Below are positions 3,021-55,052 of a stretch of DNA of 64,000 bases, piece by piece; positions within the stretch are counted from its first letter, which is position 1, and the number at the start of each line of letters is the position of its first letter. A program made the translations under genes and the position numbers. Where the stretch lies: the IMG/VR virus record IMGVR_UViG_2061766007_001638; one strand, written 5' to 3'. The notes beneath the pieces were generated by a model, which worked only from the letters and a program-made list of their open reading frames with translations, did not search any database and had not been told where the DNA came from. This DNA comes from an uncultured virus (IMG/VR IMGVR_UViG_2061766007_001638) (Duplodnaviria > Heunggongvirae > Uroviricota > Caudoviricetes).

Positions 3021-5408
3021 CACGCCCGCCGAATTGACTTGACAAAGAGAAAACCATTTGGTATAATGGAGCCATGAAAGGAAAACAACCCATGAAAAAG
3101 ATTACGATGTCCGAGTTCAACGCATATCCCGAGTTCATGCACAATGGCGTGTTGTCCATTGAAATCGGGGGAAAGATTTATTCAAAGCAGGGCGTTTACA
3201 ACCTTCTCGTGGCCATGGGGATGATTGTGGATTAAACTTGACAGAAGGAAAACGGTTTGGTATAATATAGGCACAACGAAACAAAAGGAAAAAGAAAATG
3301 AAAGAGACGTTCAAGTACAAGTTTTTTGGGGATTGCGGCTTCATTGACGATTTCTACAATGATTCCATTCCAGTTGAGCGCATTACTAAACTGGAAATCA
3401 AAAACGAAAACATGGCGATTTCCGTCAATTTGACCGATTCCGAGGTGAAGGAAACCGTTTCAAAACTTCTCACGAACTTTTCGCCCGATGAGGTAATTGA
3501 CATTCTTGCCGACATTATCCACGAAAAGAAACAGAATGGCTAATGGCGAGGGGCGAAAGCCCCGCGCCGACTTTCGGAAATTATAGCAACGCTGGCGATT
3601 TCCGTCAAGTTATTTCCAATGGTAATTGATTTGACAAACGACTTGTCTTTTGGTATAATTGAGGCATGAAAGGAAAACAAGCCATGCGCGAAAACTGGAT
3701 TCTTGAGACGATAGAGAACATGAAAAAGACTGCGGAACGGGACAACTCCATGCCGTCCGAGTTCAAGGCGGGATATATCCAGGCATTGAAGAACATCCTT
3801 TTTGTGGCGACCGAGAAGTAATTGGCTTGACAAGTCTCCCGAAGTATGGTATAATAGAGGCATAAGGAGAAACCCATGAGAATCAAACACTTCGCTGGTT
3901 ATGGTTGCGTGAACGCAAAGAAGGTAAAGAGAACGGATGATACACTTGTCGTCCATGTGTGGGGAAACCATGAACGCGGAATATATCGGAATGACTATTA
4001 CGATATTTTCAACTGGCTCGTCAAGCGGTTTGACAAAACGCGTAATGACTATTTTCNNNNNNNNNNNNNNNNNNNNNNNNNNGGAGTATTGGGAAGACGG
4101 CAAGCCATGCGGAACCGACCACTGTATCTACACCATAACTTTCAGAAACTAACAGGAAATAAGCAAAAAAGCGAAAAACAGGCTGGCCCCCTATGGGGGC
4201 CACGCCTTTTTGTTTTCGNNNNNNNNNNNNNNNNNNNNNNNNNNNAAGTTATTTCCTTCTGTCTTTTAATTTGACCGAAGCCTTGTCTTTTGGCATGAAA
4301 GGAAACAAACCCATGATTACGATGTCAGATGGAAACAATACGATTCAAGTCACGCCCGCGCAGGCGTATCAGGCGATTCTTGACGGATACCTCCCCGTGT
4401 GAATTGTCTTGACAAGAGCGAAACGGTTTGGTATAATAGAGGCATAAAGGAAAACGAGAAAGGAAAAACCCATGAACGAACCCACCACCTACACCTATCT
4501 CCTCAAAATCAAAATTGACGGGGGAGCCGCATTTCAGAAAACCCGCGTAATGAGCATCCGCGCCCGTGGGTACGAGTATGCGGTGGATGAGGCATTTGAA
4601 AAACTGTACAACGAGTTTTCGGGAGTTGTCGCCTTCTTCAATGTGGTAGACTGGAAGCGCATCTAATCGGGAATTGAANNNNNNNNNNCACAGGCACAGG
4701 CAGGAATGATTCAACCGCGCATCGGTCGCTACGGCATCTGCGGATATGATGTAATTGTCAAGGGTCTTGAATGTATCCTCTTTCGCACGAAGAGGTTGGC
4801 GCGTAGGTGGATGGAAGCGCATGGATATGAAATCGTAGGGGAATGAAAGGAGAAACAGGAAATGGAAAAAATCATCATCAGTTTAATTTTCGCGTGGGCA
4901 ATCCTCTTTATCGTGGACAAGAAGTGATTGACTTGACAGGCCGACAGAAGTCTGGTATAATAGAGGCATGAAAGGAAATCAACCCATGATAAATCCCGCG
5001 ATGAAAACTCGGCTTCAAGAAGTAAGCGAACTTTCCGTACTTAGCAAAAGCATAATTGCGGATTTACTGGTCGAACTGGAAACGCTTTCCAAAATGTCGG
5101 CCCCCGCCAGAATAGACTTTGAAAGCAAGTTTTACTTTGCCCTTGAAAAGTACGTCCAGTACAGCATAGAGGCATTTGACTTGACAAACAGGAAGTAATC
5201 TGGTATAATAGAGGCATAAAGGAAAACGAGAAAGGAAAAACCCATGAACGNNNNNNNNNNCTGGTATAATTGGAGGGGGGCACAGGTTTTCTGTTTCGGA
5301 AAATTATATCGAATCGGGGGAGTTTTGTCAAGTCAATTCATTGTCGGCATTTGATTTGACAAGATGATTGCCTTTTGGTATAATTGAGGCATGAAAGGAA
5401 ATCAAACA

Positions 5409-22793: not shown

Positions 22794-22862
22794 GTGTGGA
22801 TAGTTTAATGGTAGAACTTTCGGCTACTCCCGAATGTGCGGGTTCGACCCCCGCTCCACACT
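22794..22862 (+). ncRNA. tRNA-like RNA with 6-nt anticodon loop (CTACTC), no CCA
   Basis: GTGTGGA/TCCACAC acceptor, D-arm GTTTAATGGTAGAAC, TTCGG/CCGAA stem, T-arm GCGGG-TTCGACC-CCCGC. Confidence 0.7.
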
Positions 22863-39134: not shown

Positions 39135-39570
39135 ATGAAGCTCCAGTGCTGGGTCTGGAGGGTAAAATGAAAACCCGTAGCTCTTTGACAATTGAACTGA
39201 TTTGGAAACTGCGGATGCACATTGGTCCGCGAGTCGTCACGGCGACTATAAACAGGTATCAGGCCGTGAGCGGCGACCTGGCAAAGGGGTCTGTGGAAAA
39301 AGGGCCTCAGACCAGGTGCGCGTTACGCTTTGGGCGGACGGGAAGATGGGAGACAAAACCATACCTGAAACACTGCCGAAATGGAATAACTGAAGAAAGA
39401 ACAGACGTGGCAAGGTCCGCGTGGCCAGCAGTGGTTCCAGTCGGTGCCCGTACCGTCACCGAAAATGCTTGTGGGTGAGGGTTCCTTTAGACGTAAAGTT
39501 GAACCTGGCATGGGGATATACGCCTCGGGTCCTCTAGAAGGATATGGCTCCCCGAAATTAACCCTCGCGC
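39135..39570 (+). ncRNA. Candidate large structured ncRNA heading the tRNA operon
   Basis: Sigma70 promoter 39099-39127, no SD-led ORF, many hairpins, long-range pairing GTGAGGGTT/AACCCTCGC. Confidence 0.5.
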
Positions 39571-40279: not shown

Positions 40280-40353
40280 TGGGGCTTCGCATAAAAGCAG
40301 TGCACTGGCCTTTGAAGCCAAGGGAGATGGAGCGTTACCATCAGCCCCAACCA
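40280..40353 (+). tRNA. tRNA-Gln(UUG), atypical T-loop AGCGTTA
   Basis: TGGC-CTTTGAA-GCCA, TGGGGCT/AGCCCCA, ACCA. Confidence 0.85.
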
Positions 40354-40934: not shown

Positions 40935-41062
40935 TCGGGCGTGGCGAAATGGTAGCCGCAGGGGACTGTCGGTCTATAGTTAAATGGTAGAATGCAATCA
41001 TGAGAATGGCTGCGATTCTGGTTCAATTCCAGATAGACCGTCCATAATCCCCCGCCGCAAGG
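40935..41062 (+). tRNA. Interrupted tRNA-Asn(GUU) with nested tRNA-like insert at 40970-41044; 3' end lost at N gap
   Basis: GGGGA-CTGT[75-nt insert]TAA-TCCCC restores CTGTTAA. Confidence 0.7.
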
Positions 41063-45273: not shown

Positions 45274-46543
45274 ACTTTCCAGGTTATCAGAATCACAGGA
45301 TGTGCCTCGACTATTTCCTGGAATAAGATTTGACGTTTCCTCATGGAAACATTTTTTGAAAAATGTGACATTTTGACACNNNNNNNNNNNNNNNNNNNNN
45401 NNNNNNNNNNNNNNNNNNNNNGAATTTATTCAATTTTTATTTCGTATAATATTCATGAGAGCGGGACTAAGTAGTAAAAAACAAACAAAAAAGAAAAAAC
45501 GCGGAGCTAAAATCCACAAAAAGCCAAATNNNNNNNNNNNNNNNNNNNNNNNNNNNNNNNNNNNNNNNNNNNNNNNNNNNNNNNNNNNNNNNNNNNNNNN
45601 NNNNNNNNNNNNNNNNNNNNNNNNNNNNNNNATTTCCCGCTCAAAAAAGCACTTTTAAAGTAAAAAACAAGTCCCCTCCAAGAATTCGACCAGTTTTCGT
45701 CTTTCCCGTGGAATTGACTTGACGGAGGTTCCTCTGTTTGGTATAATATATGGCACAAAGGAAAAACAAAAAGGAGAAGAGAAAATGGACTGGTATGGAA
45801 ACAACGGCTTCAGGTGCGTGAATCTCCACGAGAACGAATACGGGGAAGAGGTCTGCAGGTACACGGACTGTCCGTGCGGCTGTTTCTCAAGGAGGGAATG
45901 CTCCTTCTCGGACTGCTTCGACGGGATTCCTGGGGAGTTTGACTGAAAGACGGACTTGGAAGAAAGAAAGAGAGAAATTAAAATGGAAGAAAACGGAAAA
46001 GGGATGGAAAAGCGGATTGAGTTCGCGGGGAAATGCGAGGAGCTCGCGGAGTTGGGGAGGGAAGTCCCGAGCGGGGGATGGGACGTCCCGATGAACTTCA
46101 TCGTGGACTCTCTCAGGAACTGGGCGAAGTGCTATCGGATGCCGCCCAGGAACATTGGATGAGGGAGAGGGAAGCGCATGGAAAGGGATTTGGAGAAAAA
46201 GAGATTCGAAATGGCGTCGATGCTTGGGTGGGCGCTGTTCGTGAAGTTCCTCAAGTTCCTGGCGGCGGCTGGGGCGGTGTTCCTCCTGANNNNNNNNNNN
46301 NNNNNNNNNNNNNNGCTGGAAATTCCGTCCAGGGGGTCAGGATTTCCCCCTCGGACTTCAGGTGAAGGAGGAGGGGAACGTGGATATGGAACTAGTCCTT
46401 TCCCGCGAAAGGATGGAGGCTTATGGGGCGTCCTGGTGACTGAATATGGTTTTCTTCTGGATTTGACTTGACTGGTCTTCGGACCTTTGGTATAATATTG
46501 GCACATTTTGGTTCTTTGGCAATTGAGGTTTTTCTTAAAAGGA

Positions 46544-46689
46544 GTTCCCGTAGCTCAAAGGAAGAGCAGGAGCCTTCGTCGGGGTCGTTCAAGCAGGACG
46601 TCCAGCACTATCTGGAAAATCCGAGTTCGAGTCTCGGACCTGGCACCGTAAGCTTCTGGTTGGAGGTTCGAGTCCTCTCGGGAATGCCA
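46544..46689 (+). tRNA. Interrupted tRNA-Arg (UCU, or UCG with a 1-nt shifted junction) with nested tRNA-like insert at 46578-46648
   Basis: GTTCCCG/CGGGAAT-GCCA, GGAGC-CTTC[71 nt]TAA-GCTTC, complete outer D and T arms. Confidence 0.85.
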
Positions 46690-46698
46690 ATTTGCGAT

Positions 46699-46773
46699 TG
46701 GTCCATGGTGAAACAGACATCACGGAATCCTCCTAAGATTCAATTTCGGGTGCGATTCCCGATGGACCAACCA
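46699..46773 (+). tRNA. tRNA-Arg(CCU)
   Basis: GAATC-CTCCTAA-GATTC, TGGTCCA/TGGACCA, ACCA. Confidence 0.88.
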
Positions 46774-46874
46774 TAGTCCGAACTCATGGTTCCACCCAAC
46801 AGATTCGGACTTTTATCTTTGGTAAATAATTCAGGACGTTAGTGGAATAACGTCTTGAAAATAAAGGTAAAAAT

Positions 46875-47747
46875 ATGAAATGCGAAGAGTGTGGAAATGA
46901 ACACGACGGCTCGTATGGAAGNNNNNNNNNNNNNNNNNNNNNNNNNNNNNNNNNNNAAGAGATAAAAATTGGAAATCCCCTTTCTCTAATCCAAAAAATA
47001 AGAGAAACAAAAAAGCACCGTTTGGGACATGGAAATGTGAAGTTTGTGATTTTATAGCAGAAACAAAAAACGAAAAATATGTTCATATACGAAAATATCA
47101 TCCAGAAACATTGATAAGACATGCGTGGAACAAAGGTTTAACAAAATACACGGATAAAAGAGTAAATCAAGGTTGTGAGTCAAAAAGAAAAAAATATGAA
47201 AATGGAGNNNNNNNNNNNNNNNNNNNNNCAGGAAACAAAGGAAAAATTATCGAGAGCACAAAGAAGTCTTTCTGTCAGAAGAAAATGCAAAAAGACTGTT
47301 CCATATATAAGAAAAGATGGAAGTGTAGTTCTCGTAGATTCTTCATACGAGATAAAACTTGCAAAAATTCTTGATGAAAATAATATAGAATGGATAAGAC
47401 CAGACCCGATTCCGTGGCTGGATGTAAAAGGAAAGACACATTTCTATTTTCCAGATTTTTATTTGACAGACTATGACATTTATCTCGACCCAAAGAACGA
47501 TTACTGTTTTGTTCAACAATCTGAAAAGATATCGTATTTTACAAAAAATTACAAAAATATCTTCTTTTTAAGAAAAGAACAATTAACAAAAGAACACGTA
47601 AATTCATTAATTGGACGGTATATCAGCTGGTTAGATAGTCGCTCTGATAAAGCGAAGGTCGTGGGTTCGAGTCCCACCCGTCCAACCAAAGGAACAAAGG
47701 AACAATGGAAGACAATCGGATGGAGAAGATACGCGAGGTATTGGTGA
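46875..47747 (+). CDS. Zinc-finger + PD-(D/E)xK endonuclease; N-terminus paralogous to 42280; frame broken by N gaps
   Basis: CEECG.EHDGSYG, GTWKC..C, WNKGLTKYTDKRV, then DSSYE..LA..LD..NI.W...YFPDFYL...IYLDPK. Confidence 0.75.
47612..47688 (+). tRNA. tRNA-Ile(GAU)
   Basis: TCGCT-CTGATAA-AGCGA, ACCA. Confidence 0.92.
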
Positions 47748-48106
47748 AGGCCAGGAAGGCCATATGCCACCATGCCGAGCATGTATGCCAAAGCTTGGCG
47801 TGGGAGAACAGCACAATAAATGCGAACTGCGGCGACGTGTTGTGCGCCCACAGGGATTTGTGCGAGGCGAAGACGGCAATCGACGAAGCCCTTTCCTTGC
47901 CGCGCCGCAACTGCGATGTCGGGACTGCGGACGAGCAGGCGGAGAGATTCGAGCGGTTCTGTGCGGAACACCACGAAGAGTGGAAAAATGGAAAGCCACT
48001 TATGGCGTGGACTTGTGATTGCCCATGCTACCAGACAAGTAAAAATTCGTGCAATTATTTTGTGTGGGCACAGATGCCATACTCGGAGGAAGGAGATGTG
48101 AAATGA
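47705..48106 (+). CDS. Cys-rich hypothetical protein
   Basis: SD-led ORF with RRNCDVGTADEQAERF..FC...C.C....WAQMPY. Confidence 0.7.
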   Translation: MEDNRMEKIREVLVKARKAICHHAEHVCQSLAWENSTINANCGDVLCAHRDLCEAKTAIDEALSLPRRNCDVGTADEQAERFERFCAEHHEEWKNGKPLMAWTCDCPCYQTSKNSCNYFVWAQMPYSEEGDVK

Positions 48107-48350
48107 GGACGGCGGATTTCATAAAGGAGCACTGCATTGGGACTTTCTGCCCAGACTTCGACTTCGAGCGTGGATGCGGGGCGTTCGACGGCGAGGAGTG
48201 CGACGAGGCGTTCTACCACCCAGAGTGGAGAGGAATGAGGATGGCCGACAGGGTCACGCGCCTCTGCGAAAGGCGGTCTCGAGAGAAGGGGACTTCCGTA
48301 TAATATGTTTGTTGATTTGATTGTTCTTTGAAAATTGAAAAATAATTTTT

Positions 48351-48425
48351 GGCCGCTTCGTATAGTGGTTATTATCGCAGACTCTTAATCTNNNNNNNNN
48401 NNNNNNNNNNNNNNNNNNNNNNNNN
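48351..48425 (+). tRNA. tRNA-Lys(CUU), 3' half in gap
   Basis: GCAGA-CTCTTAA-TCT. Confidence 0.75.
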
Positions 48426-48509
48426 NNNNNNNNNNNNNNNNNNNNNNNNNNNACGGCTGGGGAGGTTCGAGTCCTCCGCTGGGATTCCATGTATAATATT
48501 AAAAGCAAG

Positions 48510-48648
48510 GCAAGATTGGCAGAGAAGTTATGCGCCACCCTTCCCGTGGAATAGTTCAAGCAGAACGCCACAAAGGAAATCTTGGTTCAAGTCCAAGTTC
48601 CGCGACCAAAGGTGGTTTACGCCGATGCGAGTTCGGCATCTTGCTCCA
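48510..48648 (+). tRNA. Interrupted tRNA-Gly(UCC) with nested tRNA-like insert at 48545-48608
   Basis: GCAAGAT/ATCTTGC-TCCA, CCACC-CTTCC[64 nt ending ACCA]AA-GGTGG. Confidence 0.88.
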
Positions 48649-48765
48649 TTTCTACCCTGAACTCATGGTTGCCGCCAACAGATTCAGGGTGATTATTTCG
48701 TATAATTGTAAATAGATGTGTGAACGTGTTACGGCAATAACACACTAATAACGGGAAAAATAATT

Positions 48766-49369
48766 ATGAAGAAGCATTACTTGGTTTACAAAACCACTTG
48801 CCTATTGAATGGCAAGATTTACATTGGTCAACATTAGACTTATGACCTCAACGATAGCTACGTTGGAAGCGGTAGGGATTTGAAAGAGGATATTCGTAAA
48901 TTCGGGTCTGAAAATTNNNNNNNNNNNNNNNNNNNNNNNNNNNNNNNNNNNNNNNNNNNNNNNNNNNNNNNNNNNNNNNNNNNNNNNNNNNNNNNNNNNN
49001 NNNNNNNNNNNNNNNNNNNNNNNNNNACTGGGAGGATTAAAAGTTGCTATGCGATGTAAGACTGACCCAGAATACAATAGAAGGTTGTTAGACAAAAAAC
49101 GAATGGTTATGCGAATGGAGTGGAAAACCAACCCTGAAAGATTTAGAAATTGTTGTTGTTTTAATCCTTCGTTTAGAAAGACTTTTTTGGGAAAACACCA
49201 TACCGAAGAAACGAAACAAAAGATGCGAGAAAAAGCTCATCTTCGCACAGGAAAAAAGAATAGTTCTTTTGGNNNNNNNNNNNNNNNNNNNCAAGAAGGT
49301 GAAGAAAGAAGAAGCAGAAACCTTCTTGAACCAAGGCTGGAAACTCGGAAGAAAAATGAGTTTCAATAA
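48766..49369 (+). CDS. GIY-YIG homing endonuclease with NUMOD3-like motif; in-frame TAG; gapped
   Basis: YLVYKTT...NGKIYIGQH*TYDLND.YVGSG (TAG 48835), KHHTEETKQKM. Confidence 0.8.
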
Positions 49370-50298: not shown

Positions 50299-50394
50299 TC
50301 GGACGTAGGGGAGTATCGCAAACCCAGCCTCGTGAGGGAGGCCAGCCAGGACAATCAATGGCTTTCGAAGGTGAAATTCCTTCCGTTCGGACCA
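50299..50394 (+). ncRNA. tRNA-like RNA, 6-nt anticodon loop, long variable arm, ACCA
   Basis: TCGGACG/CGTTCGG, GCCTC-GTGAGG-GAGGC, GAAGG-TGAAATT-CCTTC. Confidence 0.65.
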
Positions 50395-50734: not shown

Positions 50735-50819
50735 TGCCAGGTGCCAGATAAGATAATGGGGCGGGCTGTAAACCCGCTGTCTTCGGACTTAGGTGGAGCG
50801 TTACCACCCCTGGCAACCA
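50735..50819 (+). tRNA. tRNA-Tyr(GUA), atypical T-loop AGCGTTA
   Basis: GCGGG-CTGTAAA-CCCGC, variable arm, ACCA. Confidence 0.88.
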
Positions 50820-51720: not shown

Positions 51721-51838
51721 GGCTTGATACTCAGGTAACTGGTCCTGGCCCGTGGTGAAACGGGTTCCCTGACATTGATGGGCTTGTCGACCGCCCGTCG
51801 GGGAGACAGCGGAGTCGATATCCGCAAGACAGCCACCA
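51721..51838 (+). ncRNA. tRNA-like RNA, 6-nt loop, very long variable arm, ACCA
   Basis: CCCGT-GGTGAA-ACGGG, TCCCTGAC/GTCGGGGA arm, GCGGA-GTCGATA-TCCGC. Confidence 0.55.
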
Positions 51839-51985
51839 ATTNNNNNNNNNNNNNNNTGATAATGTCTTCAGTTTATTGCAATAGACAAAAAGACATTGGA
51901 AGATGGCCAACAGAACACCTTCTATGAATCCATGGTTAGTAGAGGGAGACCCGTGGTTCGATTCCACGATGACCCGACCATTTAC

Positions 51986-52227: not shown

Positions 52228-52301
52228 GGGCCGCTAGTTCAATAGTAGAACACCTCGTTCGCAACGAGGAGACTTCGGAGCGTTACCGAACGTGTCCACC
52301 A
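52228..52301 (+). tRNA. tRNA-Ala(CGC), imperfect acceptor, atypical T-loop
   Basis: CCTCG-TTCGCAA-CGAGG, G3:U70, ACCA. Confidence 0.75.
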
Positions 52302-53936: not shown

Positions 53937-54209
53937 TCTGGAATCATTCAGACATGAAACTTGAAAGCATAGACCCAGAGCTCTTCTCGCTTGAACTCTA
54001 CAACCCGAACGGACTCCACGAGCTGGACGTGGCCCTTTGCATAGCGGCATCAATCGGATACTGCGACGCGTCCCGCCTACTCGTCCGCCCGAAAGAGGGG
54101 GAAGTTGCGCTGATGATTGAATGGGAGGACGGGTCGAAGTACTGGTGCCACGCGAACATGGACATTCTCGATTCAATCAGGGAATGGCTTGCGAGAAGGA
54201 GGTCGTGAC

Positions 54210-55052
54210 ATGGGATACACTTTCAGGAGAACCAGCGGAAACTCGTGGGACACGCATTCCCCGAGCTACGGGAAGAATACGGAAAGGAAGGTCCTTTTCG
54301 ACGGAATAACCTGGGAGATAACCCTCAGGGAGGTCATGTTCTCCATCCTTATTCTCGGGATGTTCGCGTTTTTGGGATTCCTCGTCCATTCTGCGATAGA
54401 CAAGAAAGTTGACGATTCCACCCTCAAGTACAGACAGGCCGTCTCGATACAGGACGAAGGCGAGTTCCGACACGCGATGGACACCGACGTGGGGAACGCT
54501 TTCGTAAGGGGTAAGGTCGAGGCGGTAACTCCAGTCAAGACGAAACTGGTGAAGGGCGAATATCTCAGGATTCACGTTGACCACCAGAAGTACAGGATGC
54601 ACACGAGGGTGGTGACGTACACGACTTACGACTCGAAGGGCCGTCCCCACGTCCACCACAGGACGGTCACGTATTGGTCGTGGGACACCGTGAATTCGTT
54701 CACAACGAACTCCCAGGAGGTCGTGTTCTGCGGCTCGAAGTTCAAGTACGACAAGTTCGAATATTCCTGTGCGAATACGGACGAGACGATAGTCGGAGGG
54801 GGAACGTTTAATAACGAAAGAGACGTCGTGTATACCACGAAGGACGGGTTCACTGGAACGATTTTCGCGGACCTTCGGAACGGAAGCGTGACTGGAAGAC
54901 CGACGATGGTCGGAAGAGGGATAGAGAAGTACAGGGAAAGCCTAGAGAAGTGCACCTGGCCGTACGTCCTTTTCTGGATACTGTGGATTGTGCTGACTGT
55001 TGTCGCGATAGTACTGTTCTACATAATAGACAACAGATGGCTGGAAGGATGA
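54210..55052 (+). CDS. Two-TM membrane protein downstream of LemA
   Basis: EITLRE..FSI TM, Y..HTRVVTY....G....TVTYWSWD, C-terminal TM FY.IDNRWLE. Confidence 0.75.
   Translation: MGYTFRRTSGNSWDTHSPSYGKNTERKVLFDGITWEITLREVMFSILILGMFAFLGFLVHSAIDKKVDDSTLKYRQAVSIQDEGEFRHAMDTDVGNAFVRGKVEAVTPVKTKLVKGEYLRIHVDHQKYRMHTRVVTYTTYDSKGRPHVHHRTVTYWSWDTVNSFTTNSQEVVFCGSKFKYDKFEYSCANTDETIVGGGTFNNERDVVYTTKDGFTGTIFADLRNGSVTGRPTMVGRGIEKYRESLEKCTWPYVLFWILWIVLTVVAIVLFYIIDNRWLEG

Follow-up and report, generated by a model that had tools for sequence, protein, structure and literature searches.

The phage tRNA-Gly(UCC) gene at 48510–48648 carries a second, smaller cloverleaf within its anticodon loop. Its 5′ exon (48510–48544, + strand) provides the acceptor 5′ strand, the D arm, the 5′ strand of the anticodon stem and the loop residues C-U-U-C-C (positions 32–36). 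There follows a 64-nt tRNA-shaped insert (48545–48608, + strand; insert or intron A), with a 7-bp acceptor stem, the D arm GTTC-AAGCA-GAAC, a stub of 2 bp and 5 nts, a canonical T arm, discriminator A and CCA. The 3′ exon (48609–48648, + strand) resumes with A37 and A38 and supplies the 3′ strand of the anticodon stem, the variable loop, the T arm (its loop, TGCGAGT, is unusual), the acceptor 3′ strand, U73 and CCA. A sequence check found each element that an earlier, sequence-only reading had listed, both those of the outer gene (GCAAGAT/ATCTTGC-T-CCA and the anticodon stem CCACC/GGTGG) and those of the inner one (CGTGGAA/TTCCGCG-A-CCA, the D arm just given, CC-ACAAA-GG and CTTGG-TTCAAGT-CCAAG). 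The description of the locus as gap-free also held, as 48510–48648 has no N and the closest masked run is 48392–48452.

Folded without constraint, the 139 nts have as their structure of minimum free energy a cloverleaf nested in the anticodon loop of an outer cloverleaf (−43.1 kcal/mol, z −2.2; 3 of 200 shuffled sequences did as well), and the 64-nt insert on its own folds the same way (−16.2 kcal/mol, z −2.1; 8 of 200). The Rfam tRNA family (RF00005) matches 48545–48605 at 39.9 bits, the gathering score being 29. With introns allowed, ARAGORN reports 48510–48648 as a tRNA with a 64-nt intron. None of 200 shuffles of the outer halves gave such an intron call, and in five shuffled versions of the whole window the program called no tRNA at all. 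The nested double cloverleaf is confirmed. When 48545–48608 is removed, the joined exons are called as a 75-nt tRNA-Gly(tcc). The insert itself cannot decode, since CC-ACAAA-GG offers a 2-bp stem and a 5-nt loop where 5 bp and 7 nts are needed. ARAGORN set the intron one base to the left, which would make the outer anticodon UCA (opal or selenocysteine). This was ruled out by uninterrupted natural alleles, described below, which read CTTCC/AAGG (the slash marks the joint): the site is between positions 36 and 37 and the anticodon is UCC, as the sequence-only reading had proposed.

The window (the whole 64-kb stretch that was analysed) is phage DNA of about 40–53% GC. Its sequence occurs in bovine gut metagenome runs, and the phage is from the rumen. 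It is masked at 43 stretches, and the gene searches cover the visible remainder. The ORFs with family support (Pfam: GP88, DUF932, LemA, Lar and DUF7736) are all on the + strand and all read in the standard code, and the PHROGs matches include homing endonucleases and a virion protein. A protein-based search with window 54117–55049 gave no close relative among viral contigs, and the GenBank phage collection holds no match to the nested tRNA-Gly locus or to the nested tRNA-Arg locus considered next. A tRNA array extends over about 39.5–53.2 kb; ARAGORN finds 32 tRNA genes in the window, 30 of them within the array, and Rfam gives 30 tRNA matches and one Pistol ribozyme (39232–39295, + strand; 37.9 bits, gathering 34.5), which is some 280 nts upstream of the first tRNA of the array. 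All tRNA genes of the array encode CCA. Two tRNA-Leu pairs abut with zero spacer (40390–40466/40467–40544 and 43526–43602/43603–43679), and there RNase P, by cutting once at the 5′ end of the downstream gene, would free the CCA end of the upstream one as well. Non-canonical T loops (AGCGTTA or TGCGAGT, not TTCRANY) are present at 50735–50819, 40280–40353 and 52229–52301 as well as in the outer tRNA-Gly (48620–48636). By ARAGORN the interrupted tRNA-Gly is the sole tRNA-Gly visible in the window, and GGA is the commonest glycine codon (54 of 157 across 13 family-supported ORFs). Together these lend weak support to the view that the phage needs this gene.

The nested tRNA-Arg locus

A second tRNA gene is interrupted at locus B (46544–46689). 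The 5′ exon of a tRNA-Arg(UCU) (46544–46577, + strand; ARAGORN and Rfam) is followed by a 71-nt insert (46578–46648, + strand; insert or intron B) between anticodon positions 35 and 36, and then by the 3′ exon with its CCA (46649–46689, + strand; ARAGORN). Insert B has the D arm GTTC-AAGCA-GGAC, a T arm, discriminator A and CCG; where an anticodon arm would stand it has a 5-bp stem and a 6-nt loop. The ARAGORN intron call is i(35,71), and on removal of the insert the program calls a 75-nt tRNA-Arg(tct). Upstream of this operon is a sigma-70-like promoter (46468–46496, + strand), TTGACT-17-TATAAT with a TG extension, recognized by consensus match only (11 of 12 positions).

The two inserts have in common the D arm GTTCAAGCAG(A/G)AC, an exact motif found at only these two sites in the window, together with an AAAT spacer, a canonical T arm, discriminator A and a CC(A/G) tail. 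Their pairwise score is 15.5, and insert A reaches up to 14 against ordinary tRNAs, so the family link rests on the 13-nt D arm and the overall layout rather than on overall identity. One end rule applies to both: each insert runs from its first acceptor base to the third base past its discriminator, and each excision restores a 7-nt anticodon loop C-U-NNN-A-A. The insertion sites differ, being 36/37 in the glycine and 35/36 in the arginine gene, yet each is set by the insert's own ends. This fits cuts that would be measured from the shape of the inner tRNA and not of the outer.

Natural alleles and relatives of the inserts

Contigs of four other rumen or gut runs (X3–X6) were compared with the window over 46315–48916, as DNA only. 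One X4 contig skips exactly 48545–48608, the ambiguity of the joint being 0. An X5 contig matches 46386–46577 and resumes at 46649, so that exactly the 71-nt insert B is absent, again with ambiguity 0 and with flanks that otherwise match. Scanning IMG/VR for the joined junction gave an uninterrupted tRNA-Gly, identical to the joined exons at 75 of 75 positions, in two places: in G001 (locus L053), a complete phage of 251,769 bp which has the gene at 196164–196238, and in contig L055. These empty alleles remove the doubt over the sequence between the X4 matches at the joint. By blastn 48609–48649 is 100% identical to G001. The 5′-exon motif of the tRNA-Gly led to no contigs beyond L053 and L055, and the intron-less tRNA-Arg junction motif had no match in viral contigs. 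Nested alleles also recur. Nested A is retained, with differences, in a 5,426-nt X6 contig from another study, nested B is spanned whole by one X4 contig (46488–46830), and both edges of B are in X3. The proposal made from the sequence alone, that the insert boundaries are exact, is sustained by the natural alleles without exactly 48545–48608 and by locus B, which obeys the same end rule. The insert is shown to be a discrete unit that is precisely present or absent in natural phage populations, and its boundaries and intron-like nature are strongly supported.

Neither insert has a target-site duplication, as expected of introns and unlike transposons. A transposon or MITE was rejected on this ground: there is no joint ambiguity at either empty site, and the flanks, CTTCC and AAGG at A, CTTC and TAAG at B, share no repeat. 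The inverted repeat at the insert ends is the acceptor stem, and is explained by the tRNA fold.

The X6 allele bears on the fold. It has at least six changes within 48510–48648, and 101 differences beyond those listed over the whole stretch compared. Among those listed, one is in the outer D loop (48529) and three are at unpaired positions of the insert (48561, 48567 and 48572); the other two, T to C at 48582 and A to G at 48596, fall on T-stem partners of the insert (38:52) and turn U-A into C-G. The changes listed are thus four unpaired ones and one compensatory pair, and no helix is broken among them. At the level of sequence, the compensatory change shows that the insert fold is maintained.

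The uninterrupted tRNA-Gly of G001 has flanks unrelated to those in the window, and with four real protein matches among the 164 window ORFs this phage is a distant relative. The proteins common to the two are only 37–81% identical, yet the tRNA-Gly exons are 100% identical, which suggests that the tRNA-Gly(UCC) gene was exchanged recently between rumen jumbo phages.

A pattern scan of metagenome contigs for further members of the insert family gave five loci, of which one (L005) is a chance match. The other four (L003, L004, L006 and L007), from rumen metagenomes, each carry a tRNA-like gene that stands on its own. It shares with insert A the D arm and 19 of the first 22 bases, and in its acceptor and T stems it covaries with both inserts; its overall similarity to them is only modestly above the tRNA background. 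Homology of these look-alikes to the inserts is likely, as judged by sequence and covariation. A covariance model, R1, built from the two inserts and the four look-alikes, scores insert A at 72.8 bits and insert B at 69 bits, ordinary tRNAs reaching at most 30.5, and it detects no further copy in the visible window. The insert-family pattern had two chance matches in viral contigs, in a coding region, and none in genome contigs; a relaxed pattern gave none in viral contigs. A looser pattern gave 44 loci with R1 scores of at most 39.2 bits, which are either ordinary tRNAs (among them His and Tyr) whose D arm resembles that of the inserts, or tRNA-like sequences of an unrelated, GC-rich group.

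The look-alikes sit between genes of rumen phage tRNA arrays, in an RNA region of some 300 nts that is conserved and structured (L003 777–1077, L004 74–375, L006 5902–6195 and L007 255–549 on the − strand). It consists of an upstream 9-bp hairpin, the tRNA-like element and then a domain of about 135 nts with covarying helices. The region matches no Rfam family, and that of L003 has no match in GenBank phages. At the end of the G001 array there is another free-standing tRNA-like gene (L053 4491–4566, which is G001:196678–196753; R1 36.8 bits). It ends in ACCA, and a 6-bp stem with a 6-nt loop replaces its anticodon arm. The window has three free-standing tRNA-shaped genes: 22794–22862 has an aberrant, 6-nt anticodon loop, 40970–41044 an 8-nt one (ARAGORN gives a 4-base anticodon, GAGA), and 50299–50394 is a 96-nt element of several hairpins that ends in ACCA.

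A few intron calls lie outside this family. A tRNA-Thr with a 165-nt intron is called by ARAGORN at 51739–51980, a call that spans the masked run 51842–51856. The ARAGORN intron call at L006 2041–2198 was discarded as a nested case, as no nested fold was seen. In a 221,842-bp viral contig (L056), a tRNA-Ile(GAT) at 3946–4075 on the − strand has a 56-nt AT-rich insert of two hairpins at loop position 32/33. This insert was rejected as one of the same kind, being of a different, hairpin type. The array of L056 also contains two tRNA(UUA) genes.

Proposed excision and ligation, and other readings

The reading favoured here is that of an ORF-less, tRNA-shaped intron which would be excised by the nucleases that process tRNA ends and whose exons would be sealed by an RNA ligase. 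On present sequence evidence this is quite possible, if still a little short of probable. RNase P would cut at 48544/48545, the 5′ end of the insert, as it does at any tRNA 5′ end. A 3′-end nuclease acting just after encoded CCA, for example an RNase Z with this specificity, would cut at 48608/48609. The exons would stay paired through the outer acceptor (7 bp) and anticodon (5 bp) stems, with 3′-OH and 5′-phosphate ends, and an ATP-dependent RNA ligase, of the kind with which phages repair tRNAs, would then join them into the 75-nt tRNA-Gly. A second product may be the freed mini-tRNA itself, which ends in CCA.

As a proposal this pathway is plausible. The insert keeps its acceptor stem, T arm and A-C-C tail, so that a 5′ cut by RNase P and a 3′ cut after CCA are the natural reading, and the fold, in which the anticodon arm is reduced to a 2-bp stub, fits the initial suggestion that the parts recognized by processing enzymes were kept and the decoding arm lost. 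A73-C74-C75, retained by both inserts, is bound by bacterial RNase P. Archaeal RNase Z enzymes are described as cutting just after encoded CCA and as tolerating armless pre-tRNAs (PMC7479834). G001 has two ligase genes, one for an RNA ligase of PF09414 (88.5 bits) and one for RtcB (357 bits). However, none of its 37 tRNA genes has an intron and it is only distantly related, so its ligases say little about the phage of the window. PF09511 (T4 Rnl1) had no match in G001, and its control also matched in no genome. Pfam and PHROGs searches gave no gene for RNA ligase, RtcB or Pnkp in the visible part of the 64-kb window, of which many stretches are masked.

Several features count against the pathway. 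The RNase Z usual in bacteria cleaves on the 3′ side of the discriminator, and CCA inhibits it, a habit that would leave CCA on the 3′ exon. The tail of insert B is CCG rather than CCA. The bases at −1/+1 of the 5′ junction of A are C/C, which is not a preferred combination for RNase P (it prefers U/G). The identity of the exons to the intact allele could reflect a very recent insertion into a now dead gene.

This last point leads to the strongest rival, which is considered rather unlikely, if worth serious weight: that the insert is a selfish, tRNA-derived mobile gene residing in anticodon loops. The outer tRNA-Gly would be a fresh pseudogene, and only the inner mini-tRNA would be released, by RNase P and 3′ trimming, as a non-decoding RNA, for instance a decoy for tRNA-targeting defence nucleases. 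The presence/absence polymorphism at the DNA level would be expected of such an element, as would the conservation of the insert fold itself, and tRNA-like genes with aberrant anticodon arms do stand free, in the window (22794, 40970 and 50299), in G001 and at L003, L004, L006 and L007. In X6 the exons, with one change in 75 nts among those listed, are no better conserved than the flanks, with about 3 in 287. However, two different tRNAs are interrupted, and both would regain on excision a perfect loop of 7 nts, U33 and A37 included. Neither outer gene has decayed, that of A being identical to the intact allele at 75 of 75 positions. Insertion would kill the sole visible tRNA-Gly, which serves the commonest glycine codon of the phage, and yet the nested allele persists across samples of several studies.

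The insert could instead be a true intron removed by other chemistry, with a phage or host endonuclease leaving a 2′,3′-cyclic phosphate and a 5′-OH at the junctions of the 5×6-nt internal loop and RtcB joining the ends; the tRNA shape would then serve for enzyme recognition or have some other role. In favour are the RtcB gene of G001, which shares the identical tRNA-Gly, and the lack of fit of any known bacterial tRNA-processing nuclease to the 3′ junction. Introns of the Lak type, so far as Table S6 of PMC6784885 presents them, also bear extra 5′ modules beyond what RNase P alone would account for. Nevertheless this chemistry is improbable. No candidate endonuclease was found, and G001 is itself without tRNA introns. 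A bulge-helix-bulge (BHB) intron (two 3-nt bulges with a 4-bp helix between them) was rejected because the motif cannot form: the two junctions lie opposite one another in a single internal loop, of 5×6 nts in A and 4×7 nts in B, which separates the outer anticodon stem from the inner acceptor stem. By inspection, CUUC cannot form the 4-bp pairing with the 3′ end of insert A.

Finally, a split tRNA functioning without ligation, its halves held together after two cuts by the 7 + 5 bp, or a product of chance or assembly, is very improbable, since a nick in the anticodon loop stops a tRNA from decoding, the shuffle controls yielded no such calls, and independent assemblies (variants of nested A in X6, nested B in the X4 contig at 46488–46830 and parts of B in X3) exclude an artefact.

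The only tRNA introns generally credited to bacteria and their phages are self-splicing ones (group I or II). Group I introns occupy the anticodon loops of bacterial and phage tRNAs, and in T4-type phages an ORF-less intron can home with a free-standing endonuclease. The inserts resemble these in their anticodon-loop site, in their precise presence or absence without duplication and in having free-standing genes of GIY-YIG type nearby. However, self-splicing is not expected, and a group I intron was rejected: 64 nts cannot hold the P1–P9 core, which is usually >200 nts, and there is no Intron_gpI match. Rfam searched over 48480–48700 with E values up to 10 gave tRNA only, besides two chance miRNA matches. 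Archaeal BHB introns of tRNAs, which are protein-dependent, sometimes in non-canonical positions and ligated by RtcB, differ in that no such motif can form here; the promoters here are, by consensus match, bacterial in type.

The final step of the favoured pathway has a counterpart in T4 tRNA repair, where the cut of PrrC is healed by Pnkp and Rnl1 seals the nick. There too a phage ligase joins 3′-OH and 5′-phosphate ends within an anticodon loop, but it mends damaged host tRNA-Lys and no intron is involved, and Rnl1 was not found here. The proposed first steps have theirs in mascRNA, freed from MALAT1 by RNase P and RNase Z, and in the punctuation model for mitochondrial tRNAs. In these also a tRNA shape within a longer transcript directs the two cuts. 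However, they are eukaryotic or organellar and their flanks are not re-ligated, whereas the flanks here are the halves of another tRNA.

The closest known kind is in Lak megaphages, whose tRNAs carry ‘enigmatic introns’, one of which ‘may encode a tRNA’, with alleles with and without them (Devoto et al. 2019, PMC6784885). They too split phage tRNA genes in the anticodon loop, and the present insert agrees with this class in that its removal gives a normal tRNA and in that it holds a tRNA-like cloverleaf. As at the present loci, the alleles with and without fix precise boundaries by alignment, and one Lak intron interrupts a tRNA whose loop reads CTTCCA (Gly UCC). However, by eye from Table S6 they are of 79–141 nts and AT-rich, and consist of a mini-tRNA that lacks a CCA end, preceded by a small hairpin and a linker. 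The inserts described here lack the 5′ hairpin and linker and are a mini-tRNA alone, of 64–71 nts, which ends in ACCA or ACCG, so that both junctions are tRNA-type ends. The Lak phages are of 26% GC as against about 40–53% for this phage, and by eye there is no similarity between the insert and the Lak intron sequences. The Lak introns were left without an explanation in 2019, and no mechanism for them was found in the full-text literature searched.

The present locus is therefore not unprecedented, the Lak introns preceding it, but it is minimal and the simplest form seen so far. Both candidate splice sites are tRNA-type ends known to the exact base from the intron-less alleles, which would make the favoured pathway testable on a 139-nt transcript with three standard enzymes. 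If that pathway is true, tRNA-processing enzymes and a repair ligase can serve as a splicing machine; the locus would then be a natural instance of ‘punctuation’ of one tRNA by another and would offer an excision module that is compact and programmable. The wider proposition is more tentative. It would add a third tRNA-splicing route in phage-infected bacteria, with the intron's own ends as splice sites, RNase P and a CCA-end nuclease to cut, a repair ligase to join, a mini-tRNA that might act as decoy or competitor, and spread with neighbouring homing endonucleases.

Neighbouring endonuclease-like genes and hairpins

A free-standing ORF with endonuclease features follows each nested locus. 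That after locus B (46875–47603, + strand) has a C2H2 finger and, towards its C terminus, a match to phrog_15137 ‘endonuclease’; masked runs interrupt its frame. That after locus A (48766–49365, + strand), also with masked runs, is a Seg-like GIY-YIG/NUMOD3 homing-endonuclease ORF: SegE_GIY-YIG gives 22.3 bits, below the cut-off of 25, and NUMOD3 20.7 against a cut-off of 20.4. An in-frame TAG at 48835–48837 of the latter points to a decayed endonuclease gene or to local TAG read-through. The X6 contig has intron A together with the beginning of the ORF downstream of it, and has 186 letters in place of the stretch with locus B and the ORF that follows B. As a DNA element, the intron probably spreads or persists with the free-standing homing-endonuclease genes directly downstream of both loci, an ORF-less intron being carried along by its neighbour. 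Endonuclease genes are common in the array, so this association, as read from gene order, is anecdotal.

Each nested-tRNA operon is also followed immediately by a hairpin with a conserved loop (CTCATGGTTNCNNCCAACAGA), of which these are the only two copies in the window. The copy after the tRNA-Arg operon (46776–46810, + strand) has the 21-nt loop CTCATGGTTCCACCCAACAGA and then a T run. The second (48655–48689, + strand), directly 3′ of the nested tRNA-Gly, has the loop CTCATGGTTGCCGCCAACAGA and a stem that is different in sequence but paired. The X6 change of A to G at 48686 falls in this hairpin and keeps the pair as a G-U wobble. The hairpin may be a terminator or a protein site.
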